Below the pieces are notes generated by a model. It made no database searches and had not been told where the DNA came from. It was given only the letters and a program-made list of their open reading frames with translations. A DNA stretch of 64,000 nt from contig CAKKNE010000002.1 in assembly GCA_918797485.1 (NCBI GenBank), positions 6,014,001-6,078,000 of the forward strand, written 5' to 3'. The DNA comes from Pelagomonas calceolata (lineage: Eukaryota). The translations under genes were made by a program, and so were the position numbers. This document shows, in pieces, positions 11,020 to 58,634 of the stretch. Position 1 is the stretch's first letter; each line of letters starts with the position of its first letter.

Positions 11020-11184
11020 AGTCCTTTGTTTGTTAATCCCTCGTCGGCCGCGGAGACGCCGCGCCGAGCGCAAGTCGCATCCCTTCCCGAAGAATTAAGT
11101 TTACCCGTTCGTGTATGAAAAAAAGGTCAGTACGACGGCGAGGGCTGCGCGCGCGCGGTCGCACCCTCAAAACGGGTTTGGCTC

Positions 11185-11303
11185 AGGCTAGTTACGTCGT
11201 AGGGTCCCCCGTACCCCTCCCGCTCCCCCCGGGCCCACGTTTGAGGCTGAGGCTAGTTACGTCGCAGGGTTCCCCGTACCCCTCCCGCTCCCCCCGGGCC
11301 CAC
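11185..11303. repeat. Direct repeat, 2 x ~54 bp
   Basis: aggctagttacgtcgYagggtYcccc...ctcccgctcccccgggcccac at 11185-11238 and 11250-11303; a related fragment lies near 14881-14920. Confidence 0.85.
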
Positions 11304-12816: not shown

Positions 12817-13451
12817 TCAGTTGTTGTGCATGAATCCTCCCCGGCTCTTGCACGGCGCCGCGTTTCGGCACTAGCCGCTCTGCTTCCGTCGGCCGTCCCA
12901 GAGAGGTCCAAATGCATTGCCATTCTCTCAGCACACTGGGTTTCACTGCAAAATTGCCGGCACGCGCCATCTTCCACACGCGAACCTGCTCTGTGGTGCA
13001 CCAGGGTGACGGAGGGCCCCCGCGCAGGCACGAGGCCCAGGAGCACTCCGCGCACGAGGAGCACATCTGGTGGGTCGACATGTTCTTCTTCCTCGGCTTT
13101 TTATTAAGCTTCCTCATGGACAAGCTCCTCGACACGGACTGAACAAGTCCTACACGTCCTTCTCCTTCCCTTCCCCTGCCGCGACCCCGCCCTCTCGCGA
13201 GGGGCAGCAAGTACGAACTAACATGTTTGTTCGCTGGCAAGTGCACGCCGCGTAGCACATCCTGTCCGCGGTAACGATATCCCGTCACGGTCGACGGGAT
13301 AGAAGTCGGGATAAGTCGGGATATGTTGCAGTATAACATACCCCGTCGACGGGATGTTAACGGGCAAGTAACGCAACACAGATTAAACACAGCTAGTACG
13401 GGGGAATCCGCGCGTCGGGCAGCATGTCCTCGCCGTGACCCGTACCGTTAA

Positions 13452-13655
13452 CGGTACGGGTCACACAGGGGCTAATTAATCCCCCGTACCCTTCCCATTT
13501 ATAAATAAGTGGAATGTGTCCGCACGGCCGAGAGAATCATTTTGCACGTGTTTTTAGCGCCAAACGGGCCCAGGAAGGGGTTCAATCGGCGTTCTTGTTG
13601 TTGCTCCTAGTGCCGCCCTAGTGCCGCTCCACTAGCCCCTGTGTGACCCGTACCG
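13452..13655. mobile_element. MITE-like element, 204 bp, with 23-bp perfect TIRs flanked by TTAA
   Basis: cggtacgggtcacacaggggcta (13452-13474) is the exact reverse complement of 13633-13655; TTAA at 13448-13451 and 13656-13659. Confidence 0.75.
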
Positions 13656-14644
13656 TTAACAGCCGCCGCCGAGCAGCGCGGCCGTCAACACTACGGTCGC
13701 GAGGCCCGCGAGGCCGACGAATGCCAGGACGGGCCCGATGTCGTCCTCGTTGTCGTCGAGGTCGAGCGCTGCCGACCCCGGAATGATACGCCAGGGCAGG
13801 GCGTCGTCGACGGCGTCGGCCCAGTCGATGGCGTCGCGGCCCGGCGGCCGTCGGCACACCTGTGTGGAAATCAAAATTTGGGCGCCCCACACCATCGACG
13901 CGATATTTTCTCCGTAGCTGCGTCTGCTCGATGGCGTGAAGTTAACCTAACTCACTGGTTGATTTCCACACAGCTCTCGACCTCGAGAAATAAACGCAAG
14001 TCCTGGGCGCACCGTCGGTTCCGGAGCTGCCCTCTCCTACAAAGATCCGCAAAATAAATCTCATCTGACACTGCCGTCAGCGCGCCGTCGTCGTCGAATG
14101 TGAGAATCGCGCGGCCCTCGATCAGGGCTAGCGGCACGCGGAGGCGCCCCGTCGCCGCCGCGTCCTGGAAGAGCTTGACGACACCTTTCCAGGAGAACGT
14201 CGAGACTTGACCGTACCGGTCGGCGTAGGGCGTCGGCGCTGCTTCTACCCCAGGCCAAGCACTAGCTACCGACAAAAGCCAGGCGGCCGACGGCGGCGTC
14301 CACGAGGCGTTGTATTTCACGATCACCTCGCGTGCTGCAACGCTCGCCGCGGCGCTCGCCGCGGCTTGGAAATCGGGCAGCTCGTCCGCGGCGGCGCGCG
14401 ACCAGTTCTCGGCGACGCGTGTCAATGCGTCGGCGCCGTTGACGCAGACGCCGCAGGCGCTCCGCAGTGTGACGTCCTCCGCCCAGGTGTCGCGCGGGCA
14501 GAACACTGCGGTTGCTGCGGCACCTTTTGGTGGTGTGAACGCGTCGACGACTTCGCGCGGGCTGGCGCGCAGTGCGCAGCGCTGGCGGTTGATCGATGGC
14601 GCGTGCAGGGCGGACGCGTACGCTACGAGGAGTGCTTTGTTCAT
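13656..14644 (-). CDS. Hypothetical, probably plastid-targeted protein; exons 14644-13982 and 13859-13656
   Basis: N-terminus MNKALLVAYASALHAP resembles a bipartite signal; removing intron 13860-13981 joins LRLFLE|VCRRPPG in frame; C-terminal hydrophobic helix. Confidence 0.7.
13860..13981 (-). mobile_element. Introner-type intron (TIR element 13860-13973 plus an 8-nt GT-starting flank)
   Basis: TIRs CTGTGTGGAAATCAA / TTGATTTCCACACAG; the TIR-terminal AG is the acceptor. Confidence 0.8.
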
Positions 14645-16623: not shown

Positions 16624-16739
16624 TCGTCGCCTCCGAGCTAACACTGGGGCGACGGCGTACGAGGGCGGGGGGGGGGGGCGGGCGTTCACGCGACCCCGCG
16701 GCGGCCGGGTGGCTAGGCGGCCTAGCTCTAAGCAAAGCA
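16624..16739. repeat. Dispersed ~118-bp repeat, copy 1
   Basis: Closely similar to 56953-57071 (tcgtcgcctccgagctaacact...ggctaggcggcctagctctaagcaaagca). Confidence 0.85.
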
Positions 16740-32345: not shown

Positions 32346-34566
32346 TTATACTTTGGCCTCGGCGATCGCCTTCACGATGTCACTGATCTCCGGCTTGAGC
32401 GACGCGCCGCCCACCAAGAAGCCGTCGATGTCCGGGAACGAAGAGAGTTCCGGCGCGTTGCCCGCATTTGCGCTTCCTCCGTATTGGATGCGGATCGCGT
32501 CGGCCGTGGCGCGGTCGACGTTCGCGGCGATCCAGTCGCGGATGCCCTTGTCTGCGCGGGATTGAGACGTGGTGGCACGCCATCGACGCGTAAAAAGTGA
32601 AGGACGCGGATCACGCACGCGTCTCCTGCGCCTGCTCGGGCGTCGCGGCCACACCCGTGCCGATGGCCCAGACCTGCGACGCGGAAGTTCATCGCGGTGT
32701 CATTGATTGGGACACTGATTTCAAGAGACTGGCTCGTAGGCGATGACGACGCGCGACTTGTCCTCCAAGGCCTTCAGGATCGGCACGATCTGTGTGGAAA
32801 TCAAATTTCAGGCGCCACGCCATTGACGCGACATGGTCCCCATAACTTCATCTGCTCGATGGCGTGGAGCTTCCACGCCATCGATGCGACGTCGTCCCTG
32901 TAACTGCTGCAGCTATGGCGTGGAGGTTCTCCGTAATAATTCGGACCTAACTGACCGGTTGATTTCCACACAGGCGACAACGTCCGTGAGCTGATCGGCG
33001 CATTCGCTGAGGACCTGTGCATAAATCAAAAGTTCACGGCGCGTTCGCGCTGAATCGTCGCGTCGACCTCCACGCCATCGACGCGACGCCTGCTCGATGG
33101 CGTGGCGATACTGGTTCCTCACCGCTCGACGGAGCCAACACGCCCGCGTCATCGCCGAGAAATGACTTAGTGAAGAATTATCGGGTGGACCCGACTCACT
33201 GGTTGATTTGTGCACAGCAAAGGACCGCTTGAATCCCCTTCTGTCGAATCGACAGCGGCTCGCCGATGCAGAAGACGCAATTTAGCCCCTGGTCCAAAAT
33301 ATACTGGAGCTTCGTCGCCATGAGCTGGTTGGACTCGGCCGGCGTGGGCAGGCCGAATTCTCCGCGCCGTTCGCTGTGGCCGATGAGCACCCACCCGAGG
33401 CCCAGGTCTTGGATTTGATCAACCGACATCTCTCCGGTGTAGGCGCCGCAGCCCTTGAAGTTACAGTTTTGCGGAGCTACATGGACACCAGGCGTGAAGT
33501 TGTCCTTGACGAGAGCAACATGTAAATTCGACGGACACACATAAACATCACATTTTTCGAGGTACGGCGCGACGCCGTCGAAGTTCCGGCAGAGCTCGTC
33601 GAGCGACGACGCGGTGGCGGGGTTGCACTTCCAGTTGCCGCCGACGATCGGTCGTCGTTTGCCGCCCGCGTGCGACACAGATGGCGCCGGTGCCGCGGCT
33701 GAAGTGGTCTCCTTGCCGACGACGACTGATACCTGCGCGGATCAAAGTCAACGCCATCGACGCGACCACTGGCTGATTTTCGCACAGACTGTGACCGCTT
33801 TGACCGCGGACGCCACGTCGTAGCGGCCGGTCCAGCCGCGGGGCAAGGCGACCGTGTCGCCGGCGACGCAGCGCACGGCCGAGCCGTCCGCGTTCGTCAC
33901 GAACATCTCGCCGCTCAGCACGTAGATCGACTCCGTCGTCGCCTTGTCGCGGACCTCCACGGGGCCCGGCTGGCGCGTCCAGACCCGCACGGCCGTGTCG
34001 CCTGCCTTGTAGATGTCGCCGTCGGACATTTGCGACGGCGTCGCGATGACGGGGGACGTGGACCTGCCGTCGTCTGCATGCGTGTGCACGGCCCAGACCT
34101 TGTGGAGGTCCTTCTGCACGTCCCATCGGCCCGACCAGCCGCGCGGCAGCACTACGACGTCGCCGGCCGCAAAGCGATGCCGCGTGCCGTCTTCTTCATC
34201 CACGGAGCCTTCGCCTTCAAGCATGATAAACCACTCCGTTGATGTGCGCGGCGCCGGGCTGAGCCAGCCGCCTTCGCTACATGACCACGACCCCACGGCC
34301 ACGTCTCCCAATTTGACGAGGGGCCGCGTCGCGTCAACGGGCGCGCCAACATCGGTGTTCGCGCGTGGGCCCTTGACCGTGAGCTTATCTCTCGCGAAGT
34401 AGCTCGGCGGGGCGTGCGTCAGCCAGTTGTGGCCGCCGATGACGGCGCGGCGGTGGTCGTCCACAGCAGCGATTGCTGGCGCGGACGGCGGTGCAGCGAC
34501 TGGCTTCTTCCAGAGTTGCAGTGCATTGGTTGTGACGAGCAACGCTGCGGCTGCGAGTGTGTGCAT
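32346..34566 (-). CDS. TPI: Fusion: signal peptide + two cupin (DUF861/EutQ-like) domains + triosephosphate isomerase; exons 34566-33796, 33732-33226, 33014-32982, 32789-32730, 32673-32619, 32551-32346
   Basis: TPI motifs [39 protein letters not shown] are restored by five GT-AG introns. Cupin motifs [15 protein letters not shown] and [15 protein letters not shown]. The TPI part has no ATG of its own after the acceptor. Confidence 0.8.
32790..32981 (-). mobile_element. Introner-type intron in TPI
   Basis: TIRs ctgtgtggaaatcaa / ttgatttccacacag at 32790-32973, with the GT donor 8 nt outside the TIR. Confidence 0.8.
33015..33225 (-). mobile_element. Introner-type intron in TPI (same subfamily as 38929 and 58041)
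   Basis: TIR element 33015-33217; flanks ctgaggac / caaaggac (6/8 TSD); internal sequence aligns by eye with 38937-39139 in reverse orientation. Confidence 0.85.
33733..33795 (-). mobile_element. Short, internally deleted introner-type intron joining the cupin and TPI exons
   Basis: ctgcgcggatcaaa ... ctgattttcgcacag; flanks actgatac / actgtgac (6/8 TSD). Confidence 0.7.
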
Positions 34567-38364: not shown

Positions 38365-39259
38365 ATGAAAGTCTGTATCATCTACGGCAGTGAGTCCGGC
38401 AACTCGGAGCGCGCCGTCAAAGCTATCGCGAAGACGTGGCAGGGGTCGAATTTCGAGATCGGCGAGATCATGGAGGGCGCGACGGCCGCGGTCCGAGGGT
38501 TCGCGGCGCTCGCGGAGCAGTACGACTTCCTGGTCGTCGCGACGTCGTCGAACGGCGAGGGCGACCCGCCGTTCAACTTTCATCCGTTTTTGAAAGCCTT
38601 ATACGCGGCCGACGACGCGGGCGAGAAGCCGCTGACGGGCTGCGGCTTCGCGGTGTTGGGCTTCGGCTGCTCGCACTTCGACACGTTCCAGAATTGCCCT
38701 CGTTTGACGGACAAGCTACTGGCAGACTTGGGAGCGATCCGCGCCGTTTCCCGCGAGGAGTGCGACGACTCGGACGAGGATCATACCAAACAAGCCAAGG
38801 CCAAATGGGGCGACGCTGTCCTCAAGGTCCTGCAATCCGGCAAAATTCCGAGCGCGCACGTCGGCGACTGGGCCGACGCCTGCACGCAGAACGGCGCGAC
38901 GATTCTCGACAAGCACGACGACATGCTCGTCGCGGCCTGCGTGGAAATCAACCAGTGCGTCGGGTGCACCCGACAATTCTTCACTAAGTCATTTCTTGGC
39001 GACGATGCGGCCGTGCTGGCTCGGTCGAGCGGTGAGGAACCGGCATCACCACGCCATCGAGCAGGCGTCGCGTCGATGGCGTGGAGGCCGACGCGACGAG
39101 TCAGCACGAACGCGTCGTAAAACTTTGATTTACACACAGGTCGCGGCGGCCCAGGGGGCGCCGTCCGTGCCGTTGCTCGTCTTCGGCGCGCTGGCCGTCG
39201 CCGCGGCCGGCGTCGCCGTGAGCAAGTTCGCCGCGCTGACCGGCGAAGTCGCCGTCTGA
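38365..39259 (+). CDS. Flavodoxin-like (FMN-binding) protein with C-terminal membrane anchor; exons 38365-38928 and 39140-39259
   Basis: IIYGSESGNSE, TSSNGEGDPP, FAVLGFGCSHFDTFQ; exon 2 encodes the hydrophobic LLVFGALAVAAAGVAV. Confidence 0.85.
38929..39139 (+). mobile_element. Introner-type intron with perfect 8-bp TSD
   Basis: gtcgcggc at 38929-38936 and 39140-39147 flank the TIR element ctgcgtggaaatcaa...ttgatttacacacag. Confidence 0.9.
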
Positions 39260-41045: not shown

Positions 41046-41550
41046 GTTTAGGTGTATTTCTACTGGCTATTTCCATAGCATGAGGCCAAACGCGGCGCCC
41101 GCGGCTCGACGACGACGCGGCTTTGGCCACTGATTGGCATAAATTGCTCTCAGAGCCCTCCGGTCGGCCCGAGCGTGCTTTTCGTGCGGGTCGCTCTTCA
41201 GAGCTTCCGTGGGCTAGCGGCCTGTAAAGACACTAGGGATGCCTAGCAAGCAGCAGCTTCAGCTCCTCGCCGTATTGTTGCCGCGCGAGTCCCATAGACC
41301 CGCAGCACTTGCCGCGCGTGCCTGACAGGACCCGCGCAGCACTTCTGCACCGTCCGAGAGCAACGCCGCGTCAGCGCTAGCTCAAAAGGCCTCCTCGCCG
41401 ATCGCCGAGGCAGCGCTTGAGTTCCGCGCCGCGCGCCACCCGGAGAGACCGCCGCGGGCAGGGAAGCGCCGCGCGCCACACCCGCAGCCAGCGCCGCGGG
41501 ACACGGGAAGGGAAGGGACAGCAACCAAAGGTAGCGAGGCCGGCCGTTGC

Positions 41551-43081
41551 ATGTCGAGCTTCCCGTTCGGCAAAAAGAAAGCTTCTATCAATTGGGCGGA
41601 TGAGGACGACTCCAGCGACGACGAGAAGGGAGACGACTCGACCGGGCCGGACGAGCCCGACGTGCCCAGCTCGGACTCCGAGGACGAGGCCGACGCCGCC
41701 GCCGCCGCCGAGGAGTCGGAGGAGGAGCAGGACGCCTCCGACGACGACGAGGCCGAGAGCTCGGAGGAGGACGAGCCCGCGCCCGCCCCCGAGGTAGCGC
41801 CGACCGAGGAGAAGCCCAAGCCGCCGCCGCCGAAGCAGCTCACGAAGAAGGAGCGCAAGGCCCTCAAGGCGAAGGAGCTCGACGACCTCGACGCGCTGCT
41901 CGCCGCCGAGGGCCTCGCGCCGCAGGAGGCGCCCGCGCCCGCGCCCGCCGCGCCGCCCGCGCCGGCGCCGCCGGCCGCCGACGACGGCGACGCCAAGAAG
42001 AAGAAGAAAAAGAAGGGGCGCCGGCCGTCGGCCAAGGCGGACGAGCCCGCGGCGCCGCCGCCGCCCGCCGCGCCCGCCGCGCCGGCCGACGTCAAGGCGC
42101 TCCTCGCCAAAAAGGCCGCCGCCAGCAAAGGATCGAAGTCCGGTGCGCGCGCGGCGTCCCACGCAATTTCCTCAACTCCGTGGCGCAATGGATAGCGTAT
42201 CAGACTTCGAATCTGGGGGTTGCGGGTTCGAGTCCCGTCGGAGTTGTTGTTCGCTTGATGGACTGGAAATCTGAAGGTTATGAGTTCGAATCTCATATCG
42301 GTTTCACCGCGGTACTTGGACTCTTGCAAGATAGTGTGGCCGAGTGGTTAAGGCGGTAGACTTGAAATCTACTCCCGTAAGGGTCGCAGGATTGATTCTC
42401 ACCAATCAATGCGCTTTCGAACCCTGTCACTATCGCGCACGTTGATGATGTGGCCGAGTGGTCTATTAACCTGAGATGGTTAGACCCTAGGCGCTGGTTT
42501 TAGGCACCAGTCTTCGGGCGTGGGTTCGAACCCCACCATCATCACTTGAGTTCAATTCCGCACATTTGTATCCGTGGCCGAGTTGGTCTAAGGCGTTGGA
42601 TTTAAGCCCCAATCTCTTCGGAGGCGTGGGTTCGAACCCCACCGGATGCAATTTGGACCGATTGGCGCAACGGTAGCGCGTCAGATTCCAGTCCTGAAGG
42701 TTACGTGTTCGAATCACGTATCGGTCACACAAAAGTCGCGGGCGCCGCCGCACGGAGTTTCCCGAAACTCACGCGTCCCCCGAACGCAGGCGGCGGCTCG
42801 GCCATGTCGAAGGAGTCCGTCGCGGAGGCGAAGAAGCGCGCCGACGCGTTAGCCAAGAAGAAGAAGGCCGCTGAGGTACCGCGGCCGCGTCCTTAAATCA
42901 CGGCAAGGGGGTGTAGCTCAGTGGCAGAGCGTCCGCTTTGCATGCGGAAAGCCCAGGGTTCAAACCCCTGCTCCTCCAGCCTTACGTACGCCGTCGGTAC
43001 CGGGTTCCCCGAACTCACGCGTTTCCCCCTTCGCAGAAAAAGAAGAACAAGGCCAAGGGCAAGGGCCCGCAGCAGCGCTGA
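41551..43081 (+). CDS. Acidic/Lys-rich protein of unknown function; tRNA host gene; exons 41551-42142, 42790-42875, 43037-43081
   Basis: Introns GTGCGC..ctcac..CAG (42143-42789, phase 1) and GTACCG..ctcac..CAG (42876-43036, phase 0) give a continuous ...KGSKS-GGGSAMSKESVAEAKKRADALAKKKKAAE-KKKNKAKGKGPQQR*. Confidence 0.8.
42174..42246 (+). tRNA. tRNA-Arg(TCG)
   Basis: AACTCCG/CGGAGTT acceptor stem; TCAGA-CT-TCG-AA-TCTGG; GCGGG-TTCGAGT-CCCGT. Confidence 0.95.
42256..42304 (+). pseudogene. tRNA-Trp-like 3' half with an apparently inverted anticodon loop
   Basis: TCTGA-AGGTT-ATGAG-TTCGAAT-CTCAT-ATCGGTT parallels the 3' half of the tRNA-Trp at 42656; no D arm or 5' acceptor strand. Confidence 0.6.
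42330..42435 (+). tRNA. tRNA-Ser(TGA) with 25-nt non-canonical intron 42391-42415 (position 53/54)
   Basis: GATAGTG/CACTATC acceptor, G73; GTAGA-CT-TGA-AA-TCTAC; long variable arm; T arm GCAGG|insert|TTCGAAC-CCTGT. Confidence 0.9.
42444..42544 (+). tRNA. tRNA-Leu(TAG) with 23-nt non-canonical intron 42466-42488 (D loop, ~21/22)
   Basis: GATGATG/CATCATC acceptor, A73; CTGGT-TT-TAG-GC-ACCAG; removing the insert restores GCCGAGTGGTCTAAGGC. Confidence 0.9.
42568..42650 (+). tRNA. tRNA-Leu(TAA)
   Basis: GTATCCG/CGGATGC; TTGGA-TT-TAA-GC-CCCAA; long variable arm; GTGGG-TTCGAAC-CCCAC. Confidence 0.95.
42656..42727 (+). tRNA. tRNA-Trp(CCA)
   Basis: GACCGAT/ATCGGTC; TCAGA-TT-CCA-GT-CCTGA; ACGTG-TTCGAAT-CACGT. 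Confidence 0.93.
42907..42978 (+). tRNA. tRNA-Ala(TGC)
   Basis: GGGGGTG/CTCCTCC with the G3:U70 alanine identity pair; TCCGC-TT-TGC-AT-GCGGA. Confidence 0.95.
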
Positions 43082-51070: not shown

Positions 51071-51425
51071 CTAGCGGCCTGTAAGACACTAGCACTAGAT
51101 ACCCTTCCTCCGACAGGCGCCGTTGTTGGCGACGACGCCGTAGGCCCAACAACACGCGGCCGCGATCCATAGATTTATAATGTGTTGGTTTTTAGTCGTC
51201 TCCGCGGAGGGGGGGGGAGGGGGGAGCCGCGCCTGGTAAGGGCGCGAGCGTCACGAAGACGGGGGAGATGCGTCCGTGCCGTCACGCGTAATCGAGGTTG
51301 ATTTCGCTCTCACCGCGGCGAATAAGCCGTCTAGAGAGCAATGACCAAAGGCCCGACGGCGCTTATTTTGATGCTGCTAAGCCGACGCATCTACGCTTTC
51401 TAACTAGTGTCTTACAGGCCGCTAG
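51071..51425. mobile_element. Segment bounded by a 22-bp perfect inverted repeat (possible MITE)
   Basis: ctagcggcctgtaagacactag (51071-51092) and ctagtgtcttacaggccgctag (51404-51425). Confidence 0.5.
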
Positions 51426-55042: not shown

Positions 55043-55093
55043 GCTAGCGGTCTGTAAGACACTAGGAATGCTAGTGTCTTACATACCGCTAGC
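55043..55093. promoter_or_regulatory. Inverted pair of the recurrent GCTAGTGTCTTACA(GG)CCGCTAGC motif
   Basis: gctagcggtctgtaagacactag-gaatg-ctagtgtcttacataccgctagc; single copies occur in many other intergenic regions. Confidence 0.55.
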
Positions 55094-55792
55094 AACGCTT
55101 TTGCCGCAATTCACGTCTTGCCTCGCTGAGAGCTTAGCGCGCGTATACGGCGCCAGCAAACGCCTCCAGCGCGTCGACGCAGCGCGCTGAAGCTTCGACG
55201 CGCGTACAGGACCGGTGCGAACTCGCAGCACACTGCAACAAGACAACGTCGCCAGCCGCTACCAAGCTGCGCGCTGCGGCGCCGCGTCTAGAGGCAGCTA
55301 CAACGTACAACACTACAACGTACGACACTTCTCGCTGAAAGCGCAACCGCAGCATCGGGCGCGCCTCCAGCGCCAGGCGCAAATACGCCAGACGCGAATA
55401 CGCAAATACTTCAAAAAAAGAGCACGGCGTTGCGCGCGGGTGCGACGTTCACAGTAGGTTGCGCCCGCCCCGCCGCCCCCATCACACGACGAATTCACCC
55501 TAGATCAAGTGGGGGACAAGAGTTCGGGGAGTGCTCGAGATCATGCGTGGGCCGTTCGTGTCGAGTCGCTCCGGCGATTCCGCGACCGCTCGCCCCAAAT
55601 TCCACCTCCTTCAAGGGTTCGGCCGTCGGCCGCCACCCTTGCTGGGAGATAACCTTGGGGCTAACACTTCTTCGCACAGGCATGCCGAGGTAAAGTTAGC
55701 CTAACTAGGGTATCTCAGCGATCTTTCTGCCAACGGACGCCAAGGCACCCCAGGGCCTCCGCACGGACCTCTACAAAAAACCGAGGTAGCGG

Positions 55793-56907
55793 ATGTATCG
55801 ACCTTGGCTGGTGCTCGGCGTGGCGGCCGCGCTGCGGCTCCCCGCCGCGCCGTACATAAGTCAGGACTGCAACGCGGGCCGGCGGGCGCCGCGCGCGCCC
55901 GAGCGGCCGCCGCCGAGCCGGCGCGACTGGAACGACTTCATTCGCTTGGTGCAACACGCGCACGGCCAGATCGCCGAGCCGGCGCGGACCGGCGTCCTTC
56001 ATTGCTCTCGTGGCCTAATGGACAAGGCGTCGCCCTCCTAAGGCGAAGATTGCGGGTTCGAGTCCCGTCGTGAGTAGCGTCGACCGGTCCGCGCCCGACG
56101 CAGGTGACGAGTCAGCTGGCCACGGGCGACATCAAGGCGCTCTGCGCGGCGCGCGCGGCCGCGGCGACGGACCAGATCCGGGACGTGGCGGCGACGGGGT
56201 CGCGGCGGTGCCTCGTCGAGCTGGGCGCGCGCGAGGGCCGCGTCGCGACGGTGCTCGCCGACCTGGGCTTCGAGAAGACCTACCTCGTCGACCGCGACCA
56301 CCCGACGTCCGACGAGGCGCGGGCGACGCGGGGCGAGCGCGTCACGGCGGATTTAAGGCACTTTGATGTGGCGGCGCTCACGGACGCGTCCTGCGTCGTC
56401 GCCAAGCACGTGTGCGGCGTCGCGATGGACTACTCCGTGCGCATGGTCGCGCGCGCGCGGCCCGAGGTCTTTGCGTTCGCGCCGTGCTGTTATTTTTCCT
56501 GCGAATACGACGCGTACCCGGGTCGCGAGCTGCTCGCGGAGCTGGGAGTCTGCAGGGACGCGCGCGACTTCGACATGCTCAAGAAGCTCACGCAGTGGGG
56601 GCCGAACCAGTTCTCGCCGTCCACCGAGGCCGCGGGCCGGTGGGCTATGGACTTGATTGATGCGGGGCGCGTCGACTTTCTGCGGCGGAGCGGCCTCGAC
56701 GCGGCGGCGCTGCCCTACGCCGACGCGCGGCTCGCGCTCGACGGGGCGCTCGAGTGCACGCTGCTGGTCGGCTGGCGGCCCCCGGACGCGGACGCGGATG
56801 CGGCGGCGGCGTCGCCCTGGGATACGTACCAAGACGAAAACGGCACGCCGTACTACCACAACCGCGAGACGGGGGAGACGGCGTGGACGCTGCCCGGCGA
56901 GTCCTGA
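55793..56907 (+). CDS. Trm13-like SAM-dependent methyltransferase with C-terminal WW domain; exons 55793-55981 and 56104-56907; tRNA host gene
   Basis: LVELGAREG, LVDR, ADLRHF, AKHVCGVAMD, APCC; WW domain PWDTYQDENGTPYYHNRETGETAWTLP; a GC-AG intron at 55982-56103 joins EP|VTSQL in frame. Confidence 0.7.
56004..56076 (+). tRNA. tRNA-Arg(CCT)
   Basis: GCTCTCG/CGTGAGT; GCCT-AATGGACA-AGGC; TCGCC-CT-CCT-AA-GGCGA; GCGGG-TTCGAGT-CCCGT. Confidence 0.93.
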
Positions 56908-56952: not shown

Positions 56953-57071
56953 TCGTCGCCTCCGAGCTAACACTCGGGGCGACGGCGTACGGGGGCGGGG
57001 GCGGGGCGGGCGTTCGGTCACGCAGCCCCCGCGGCGGGTCGCGGCTAGGCGGCCTAGCTCTAAGCAAAGCA
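56953..57071. repeat. Dispersed ~118-bp repeat, copy 2
   Basis: See 16624-16739. Confidence 0.85.
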
Positions 57072-57080
57072 GACACAAAC

Positions 57081-58634
57081 TTAAGAATACGGATCGTCCA
57101 GGGACTTTGGCGGCCTCGGCCGCGTCTCGGCCGCCGCAAACCCAAATGCGATCAACGCCGCGAAGGCGATGAGCGTCGCGCCGCCGAGGCCCTTGTTTTC
57201 GGCGAAGAGCGTAAAGTAGGTGATCGTCGAGGCGAAGCCGGAGTGCACGTAGATCGACGCCAACGCGGCCGCGGCGCAGGGCGTCCCCCGGAAGAACTCC
57301 ACGTATATGTGTTTCGTCGAGTTTTCAAAGACCGCGCGATTCACGCCCTGCAGCGCGAACAGCAGCACGAGCTGCCGCCACGCCATGAGGTCGGACGTCG
57401 AGTGCGCGCAGAGGCACACGCCGAGCACGGCGTACGACGAGAAGGCCACGGCGACCGGCGCCCGCGGCCCGCCCTTCCTCGCGGCGCCGGCGAGCACGAT
57501 CGCGGCGAGGCCGGCGGTCACGGTCGTCACCGTCGAGCACACCGCGACGGCCGCCGCGCCGCGCTTCTCGTCGACGAGGCCGTCGACCCAGTCCGTGAAC
57601 AGCGCGCTCGAGAAGCCGAAGCCTAGCGGGAGGGGCGCGAGGAGCCAGAGCCGCGGGTCGGCGACGTGCGCCAGCGCCACGGCGCGCAGGCTCTTCCCCA
57701 CGTCCGACGACGGCTTGCCCCGCGCGCCGCGCGCCAGCCCGAGCTCGAGCGGGTCGTGGACGAAGAACGCCGTCGCGCAGGCGCCCACGCCCACCAAGCC
57801 CGCCGTCGCGCCCTCGAGCGTCGCGCCGAGGCCGAGCGCGACCGCCGTCGCCACCTTGACGCAGGCCTCCATCGCCACGTAAATGACCGCAAAGAGCGTG
57901 GCAAAGTCCGCCGACGCCTCCTTCGCCGGGATCTGCTGCACGTCCGCGTGGGCCGCCGAGGCCTGCGCGTAGTGCTGCGTCTGGCCGACCCAGAGCGTCG
58001 CGCCGCCGACGCCCGCCCCGACCGACGCGAGCAGGACGACCTGTGTGGTAATCAACCAGTGCGTCGGGTACACCCGACAATTCTTCACTAAGTCATTTCT
58101 CGGCGATGACGCAGCCGTCCTGGCTCGGTCGAGTGGTGAGGAATTCACACCGCCACGCCGTCGAGCAGGCGTCGCGTCGATGGCGTGGAGGACGACGCGA
58201 TGATTCAGCACGAACGCGCCGTAAATTTTGATTTCCACACAGATGACGACTGCGTCTGCCACGGCGCCGCCGCCCAGGATCTCGTAGGAGAGGTAGCTCG
58301 CCGCGAGGAGCACGTAGCCGCAGAATCCGGTGAGCAGCGCATAGAGCACGCCGACGCGACGCACGACGTCCGTCGCTACGAAGAGGGCCGCGGTCGTGTA
58401 GGCCGCGAAGAACGCGCCGAGACTCGCGCTCGACAGGTCCTTGCCCTGCAGCGACGACGCGTAGACCATCGACGTGACCGCGCAGCCGTGCAGCACGCCG
58501 AACGTCACGCAAAACATGATCCAGGTCCGGCGCGTCGTGGCGTACGCGGGCAGCGCGCCGTCGTCGTCGGGCAGCAGGTACTGGTGCTCGCCATCCGGGT
58601 AGAACGACTGCTGGAAGGGGCCCGGTTCCATCAT
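57081..58634 (-). CDS. UNC-93-like MFS membrane protein; intron 58041-58250
   Basis: GAGVGGATLWVGQ, LWLLAPL..GFGF, LQGVNRAVFE; many hydrophobic helices. Confidence 0.75.
   Translation of the reverse strand: MMEPGPFQQSFYPDGEHQYLLPDDDGALPAYATTRRTWIMFCVTFGVLHGCAVTSMVYASSLQGKDLSSASLGAFFAAYTTAALFVATDVVRRVGVLYALLTGFCGYVLLAASYLSYEILGGGAVADAVVICVEIKIYGAFVLNHRVVLHAIDATPARRRGGVNSSPLDRARTAASSPRNDLVKNCRVYPTHWLITTQVVLLASVGAGVGGATLWVGQTQHYAQASAAHADVQQIPAKEASADFATLFAVIYVAMEACVKVATAVALGLGATLEGATAGLVGVGACATAFFVHDPLELGLARGARGKPSSDVGKSLRAVALAHVADPRLWLLAPLPLGFGFSSALFTDWVDGLVDEKRGAAAVAVCSTVTTVTAGLAAIVLAGAARKGGPRAPVAVAFSSYAVLGVCLCAHSTSDLMAWRQLVLLFALQGVNRAVFENSTKHIYVEFFRGTPCAAAALASIYVHSGFASTITYFTLFAENKGLGGATLIAFAALIAFGFAAAETRPRPPKSLDDPYS
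58041..58250 (-). mobile_element. Introner-type intron (210 nt, frame-preserving)
   Basis: TIR element 58041-58242; flanks aggacgac / atgacgac (7/8 TSD); highly similar to 38937-39139. Confidence 0.9.

Follow-up and report, generated by a model that had tools for sequence, protein, structure and literature searches.

Eukaryotic tRNA genes are regarded as independent transcription units of RNA polymerase III (Pol III). Within the accessible portions of the literature searched, the sole exception found is the tRNA-Sec of Trypanosoma brucei, which is produced from a Pol II read-through transcript and lies, as one special tRNA, between the genes of a polycistron (PMC2943599). In Caenorhabditis, tRNA genes are found inside the introns of genes that encode proteins; they occur in both orientations in a subset of genes, are bound by Pol III, and retain the same host across species (PMC4999229). 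Small RNA genes that reside in introns and change hosts are known in the form of mobile snoRNAs, which enter existing introns (PMC1687206). Finally, introners are recognised as similar introns at unrelated sites that are empty in relatives (PMC11282704).

The locus described here, from the pelagophyte Pelagomonas calceolata, shares features with each of these systems and is identical to none. As in Caenorhabditis, tRNA genes lie inside the introns of genes that encode proteins, but all cases observed are in the sense orientation, the tRNA fills most of its intron, and the pairing of tRNA and host shifts between close relatives. As in T. brucei, the tRNA may come from a Pol II transcript, which was demonstrated there and is proposed here, and at least seven isotypes are involved, situated in predicted spliceosomal introns. 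What sets it apart from mobile snoRNAs is that the intron as a whole turns up at new locations. In the full-text literature searched, which covers few subscription papers, neither tRNA-carrying introners nor intronic tRNAs of pelagophytes are reported, and the word 'tRNA' is absent from the accessible main texts of two pelagophyte genome papers.

The window, that is, the whole stretch of DNA analysed, comprises 64,000 nucleotides (contig CAKKNE010000002.1, positions 6,014,001 to 6,078,000) with a GC content of 67.7%; its DNA is present in sequencing runs of a single cultured organism as well as in marine metagenomes. Its tRNA-Arg(CCT) lies at 56004-56076 on the forward strand and is intact by both Rfam (RF00005, 64.4 bits) and ARAGORN (Arg(cct)). 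The A and B boxes are present in the Rfam alignment; the same boxes are also part of the tRNA structure. The preliminary description had placed this tRNA in a GC-AG intron of a Trm13-like gene and had found no oligo-T behind it. Both points are largely borne out: no oligo-T terminator occurs near the tRNA, the first T4 being 416 nt downstream, and removal of the predicted phase 0 intron (55982..56103, + strand, 122 nt) yields a frame of 330 codons from the ATG at 55793. Left unspliced, the frame from the same ATG runs for 82 codons before it ends within the tRNA.

This intron has nine possible in-frame donors. Among the three nearest, 55982 is the sole one that gives a gap-free fit to four sister proteins (P0004, P0055, P0056 and P0059); 55973 and 55994 were rejected on account of the extra gaps that they introduce. 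The contigs of P0055, P0056 and P0059 are 15-21 kb long, and these sisters are therefore probably genomic and devoid of this intron. In four other full alleles the donor is GC twice and GT twice (L012, L015), both exons are open in all four, and indels lie within the intron. Since one alone of the three donors fits the sisters devoid of this intron without gaps and other alleles carry GT at the same position, the intron is well supported. Its GC donor is ordinary for this genome, in which about 14% of introns are predicted to be GC-AG (bioRxiv 10.1101/2024.10.30.620910). The intron is closed by an inverted repeat on the + strand, whose 5' arm begins at the donor (55982..55992) and whose 3' arm (56084..56094) stops 9 nt before the acceptor.

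RNA evidence comes from three polyA runs of one sample, of which 6-12% each was read. Sense transcription is seen from 55300 onward, upstream of the tRNA, and the same transcript contains a second GC-AG intron in its 5'UTR (55359..55679, + strand). Splicing of the latter is visible in 12, 16 and 11 reads of the three runs, as a joint 55357->55679 that gives these ends after a one-base shift. Together, the upstream sense reads and the spliced 5'UTR intron place the transcript start upstream of the tRNA, as the earlier interpretation had presupposed. Spliced reads across 55981/56104 are absent from the three runs because depth falls to zero just upstream, at 55910-55970. Reads over the tRNA itself are nearly all sense and extend about 60 nt upstream; most stem from other copies, since position 56068 is different in 49 of 58, 23 of 26 and 10 of 10. 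Molecules with two tRNAs are represented by 14, 8 and 4 reads, and reads from the organism of the window contain at least flanks of the host D type (see below) and an array of two tRNAs. Whichever polymerase acts, unspliced polyA reads are to be expected over a tRNA that lies in an intron.

The 5'UTR intron also harbours a structured RNA (55415..55670, + strand) with a two-hairpin H/ACA layout and a fold z of -3.57. It is a candidate H/ACA snoRNA of the snR30/U17 type, with a weak Rfam match to Afu_309 that falls below the cut-off (E 0.0039). A homologue occurs in the 5' intron of an unrelated gene (host E, locus L013) that also hosts tRNA-Arg. Apart from one chance-level match, Rfam reported no further RNA families in the window at E 0.5.

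The host gene consists of coding exon 1 (55793..55981, + strand, 63 codons), which matches the N-termini of three contiguous homologues (P0006, P0007 and P0008), and coding exon 2 (56104..56907, + strand), which contains a TRM13 methyltransferase domain and a WW domain. The resemblance to the Trm13 family (tRNA:m4X methyltransferase) noted earlier holds: the Pfam profile PF05206 matches at 66 bits (cut-off 26, E 4e-18), and the first Atlas match of the protein is TRM13. It differs from the family in its WW domain, which is the sole match in a PDB search, in its hydrophobic N-terminus, in a glycine motif altered relative to P0010 and P0011, and in having a paralogue in the genome. Trm13 proteins characteristically have N-terminal zinc fingers; in the host, none was found in exon 2, and exon 1 has no Pfam match at all, at E up to 1. 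The signal-peptide-like, hydrophobic stretch at the N-terminus may, to judge from its sequence, resemble a targeting signal. A search with exon 1 for longer proteins gave three matches, none of them spliced full-length. The gene order TRM13+WW, transporter-like and MBOAT corresponds to Pca_2p32500, 32510 and 32520 (PMC9481584, supplement 4).

A Trm13-like gene that contains a tRNA invites the idea, put forward as speculation in the preliminary description, that tRNA excision sets expression of the Trm13 enzyme. Its basis is the TRM13 domain of the host, together with another tRNA intron apparently present in the same gene of one sister allele: in the sister lineage (P0084, P0178, P0179) exon 1 is bounded by a different intron, placed 11 codons upstream, and P0179 appears, at the protein level, to read on into tRNA-Ala and tRNA-Arg(TCG). 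The coupling is not supported by the distribution of the intron, which recurs in near-identical form in a K+ channel gene and in a homocysteine S-methyltransferase gene, neither related to tRNA, and which is missing at this site from the sister orthologue. The signal-peptide-like N-terminus also speaks against it, as do the targets of yeast Trm13, which are His, Pro and Gly tRNAs and are not known to include Arg. Furthermore, the KEGG Trm13 label belongs to the second TRM13 gene of P. calceolata (gene table of PMC9481584). Such a circuit is very improbable. A host gene for small RNAs (the tRNA and the snoRNA-like element) whose transcription can be relied on is a simpler account than a feedback loop. 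The Trm13-like gene is likely just one landing site of the intron. In the viral contigs searched, neither the tRNA pattern nor the Trm13-like host is present.

The other tRNAs of the window are found in an unrelated acidic/lysine-rich gene near 42 kb, which has no homologue confirmation. Two GT-AG introns, both on the + strand and predicted from the reading frame alone, carry Arg(TCG), a half tRNA, Ser(TGA), Leu(TAG), Leu(TAA) and Trp(CCA) (42143..42789) and Ala(TGC) (42876..43036); removal of both gives a frame of 240 codons. The five-tRNA cluster of the first intron sits in a different host (D) in loci L018 and L023. All seven tRNAs of the window are on the + strand in predicted introns, as had been described, but the statement that all seven are intact requires amendment: Ser and Leu(TAG) are interrupted by inserts, in the T loop and the D loop respectively, and are therefore intact only after tRNA splicing.

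These inserts are hairpins, in the T loop of Ser(TGA) (42330-42435) and the D loop of Leu(TAG) (42444-42544), and their sequence differs in L023. They are likely non-canonical tRNA introns; with 25 nt removed, Ser(TGA) is called as Ser by ARAGORN. The tRNA 3' half at 42259-42304 lies 351 nt upstream of tRNA-Trp (42656-42727), a layout that is the same in L018 and L023. A stretch of 14 bp pairs its leader to the anticodon arm of Trp; between alleles, its T stem shows paired changes, and a join to the Trp 5' half yields a call of tRNA-Trp. The two together form a candidate circularly permuted or trans-spliced tRNA.

Scanning metagenome contigs with a 40-base query, for the Arg(CCT) isotype alone, gave 23 loci. 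These loci mix strains, so that hosts A to C (below) need not share one genome. Both intron flanks are visible in 20 of the 23 (one side is cut in L001, L002 and L014). Three of these 20 (L004, L007 and L011) join flanks of different sites, are probably misassembled, and were used for single flanks only. The tRNA intron is found in the Trm13-like gene (host A; four clean loci, phase 0), in a K+ channel gene (host B, Ion_trans; nine loci, phase 2), in a homocysteine S-methyltransferase gene (host C, S-methyl_trans; three loci, phase 0), in a cold-shock (CSD)/CCCH/RS gene (host D; L004, L010, L018 and L023), and in a 90-codon frame that has no homologue confirmation (host E; L013). In hosts A, B and C the first 11 intron bases are common, with one or two that vary, followed by the same tRNA and a matching arm before the acceptor. 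Their exons are unrelated; the likeness extends to the intron's first base and does not go past the exon edge.

In each of these genes, contiguous relatives are known. Host A aligns without gaps to the four sister proteins named above. The host B site is contiguous in all three full-length homologues; of the 66 matches in total, 57 read on into the intron, two are of other kinds and four lack the motif. For host C, eight of nine tested homologues are contiguous at the site, which the ninth does not cover, and other donors add gaps. Host D provides the comparison at the level of DNA: L018 and L010 carry a two-tRNA intron that is absent from L023, the identity of the exons being 93% over 384 nt. 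At another site, an intron is present in L004 and L011 and missing from L010, L018 and L023. Removal of three tRNA introns from L018 yields a frame of 261 codons. Since near-identical inserts interrupt unrelated genes in which relatives are contiguous, the tRNA introns likely move between genes.

Window and metagenome together contain ten intron sites in six host genes, all in sense orientation. The preliminary description had suggested a genome-wide rule that tRNAs are intronic and in sense. None of the 23 further loci is antisense or intergenic, and the rule gains support from six hosts, at the scale of the window and an Arg(CCT) scan. Six sense hosts would have a chance of 1/64 if strands were random, and introns make up about 5% of the genome by published figures.

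By similarity at unrelated sites and by emptiness in relatives, the tRNA introns appear to work like introners: near-identical introns occur at the unrelated loci of hosts A, B and C, and empty sites are found by proteins for A to C and by DNA alleles for D. The intron around tRNA-Arg(CCT) is likely recently copied and introner-like. Introner elements of pelagophytes and Micromonas were reportedly treated by Huff et al. in 2016. For P. calceolata, 956 putative introners with GT or GC donors have been reported (PMC9481584). Like introner elements (PMC9481584, PMC11282704), the tRNA introns are near-identical, have GT or GC donors and inverted repeats, and are matched by empty sites; they differ in containing a whole tRNA gene, in having arms not both of which are terminal and no clear target-site duplication, and in the few copies seen. 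At A to C, target-site duplication was not found beyond 2-4 nt, and 6-nt offset repeats are confined to two introns of host D. The 11-bp inverted repeat begins at the donor and ends 6-10 nt before the acceptor, with G-U pairs tolerated. Its 11-mer alone is not rare. Of the cells of the closing stem, 93.7% are paired, with one compensatory pair (36 and 9 of 500 shuffles, the 36 being those that reach the paired share of the stem); the whole-intron fold has a z of -1.73. Stem covariation lends weak support to selection at the RNA level.

The dominant introner family, of about 200 bp and with terminal inverted repeats, is also represented in the window (33012-33209, 38933-39142 and 58037-58242; 88-89% alike, in both orientations); self-comparison of the window revealed no sequence likeness between this family and the tRNA introns. 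The motif GCGTCC lies about 11 nt after the donor in the tRNA introns and in candidate tRNA-less introns at 306, 8876, 9433 and 32618(-). It was rejected as a mark of tRNA introns on account of this wider occurrence, and is possibly a lineage-wide extended donor signal.

Other repeats were seen in passing. An inverted-repeat motif recurs between divergent genes (55043-55093, 51071-51425, 11180-11303 and 41210-41250) and is possibly a MITE or a promoter element; the inverted-repeat listing of the window is dominated by GC-rich chance pairs. A high-copy intergenic repeat (56953-57071 and 16624-16739) is transcribed from both strands and very deep in the DNA run, and a MITE-like element at 13447-13660 has perfect 28-bp terminal inverted repeats.

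On balance, we lean towards the reading that a recently copied introner-like intron carries tRNA-Arg(CCT) and that the tRNA is likely freed from the Pol II transcript of its host. The spliceosome would splice at 55982/56103, and RNase P or PRORP together with tRNase Z would free the tRNA from the intron, whose ends the 11-bp stem would hold together; tRNA output would then depend on host promoters. The introns themselves would arise by copying, that is, by gain rather than by loss in relatives, for which reverse splicing, ectopic recombination and a decayed transposon can be named as routes. Support comes from the intact tRNA, the matching intron ends in three hosts and the homologues that are contiguous at each of the three sites. 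Presence and absence of tRNA introns between host D alleles, the sense orientation wherever it can be judged, and regional transcription of the host lend further support.

The main competing explanation accepts that the introns are real and copied and takes each tRNA to be an ordinary Pol III unit, with the sense bias arising from splicing limits or from the mode of copying, and with a TFIIIC too divergent to be annotated. We regard this as possible but on the whole unlikely. The internal A and B boxes are intact, and Pol III subunits (RPC1/4/5/6), TFIIIB (Brf1, Bdp1), Maf1 and SNAP43 are listed in the P. calceolata gene table (PMC9481584); the same table also lists PRORP, POP1, RNase Z, tRNA endonuclease and DBR1. 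Intronic tRNAs of C. elegans are bound by Pol III, but there both orientations are found and here sense alone (PMC4999229). As regards terminators, T4 follows within 25 nt in 8 of 28 locus copies, and poly(T) is often missing from tRNA genes of Chlamydomonas and Physcomitrella (PMC3531208); against this, no near terminator follows any of the seven window tRNAs, and in the five-tRNA cluster T4 occurs solely inside one tRNA insert. TFIIIC may also weigh against an ordinary Pol III unit, as 13 name terms retrieved no gene for it among the 14,639 accessible gene-table rows (of 16,667 genes). These rows cover about 88% of genes, chromosome 6 being for the most part missing and represented by 91 genes, and two of six control names (RPC3 and SNAP50) are also absent. 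TFIIIC subunits are often hard to detect in protists. The accessible text of PMC3945056 contains no stramenopile data on TFIIIC. In favour of synthesis from the host transcript stand the sense-only layout, the paucity of terminators, the polycistronic clusters and the sense polyA reads that reach upstream of the tRNAs. Taken together, synthesis of the tRNA from the host transcript seems to have a slightly better than even chance.

The proposed dependence on host promoters would account for the sense-only, terminator-poor layout, and such dependence would itself follow if TFIIIC had been lost. In its furthest form, this reading holds that P. calceolata has lost TFIIIC and that its whole tRNA set, single and polycistronic, resides in mobile spliceosomal introns, is made by Pol II and spreads by intron gain; we consider this doubtful, if conceivable.

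Two further explanations dispense with recent copying or with splicing. The introns could be old and immobile, lost in some relatives, with their contents homogenised by gene conversion between tRNA copies. The absence of target-site duplication at A to C, the apparent exchange of 3' intron portions between hosts B and C, and the occurrence of GCGTCC in tRNA-less candidate introns are compatible with such a history. It is nevertheless improbable, given that the likeness runs from the first intron base to the exon edge in three genes, that every contiguous homologue examined, distant ones included, lacks an intron at these sites, and that alleles 93% alike differ in intron presence. Alternatively, the insert could remain unspliced, either as a tRNA cassette that broke the gene or with exon 2 translated alone; the missing junction read, at low depth near the site, would agree with this. 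The interchange of GC and GT at the donor among alleles, the conservation of exon 1 with homologues, and the alleles in which both exons stay open while indels fall inside the intron make it a very remote prospect.

Mobility of an intron family combined with release of the tRNA from the host transcript would, if true, be an undescribed eukaryotic way to spread and make tRNAs. The supply of tRNA would be tied to mRNA transcription and splicing, and recently gained introns would have a selectable cargo. In an ocean alga that is abundant and in culture, the gain of introns could be followed directly as presence/absence variation. Even if each tRNA is transcribed by Pol III, an intron family that shuttles intact tRNA genes between unrelated genes is unreported in the literature searched. 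Should TFIIIC indeed have been lost, an essential gene set would live in jumping introns.
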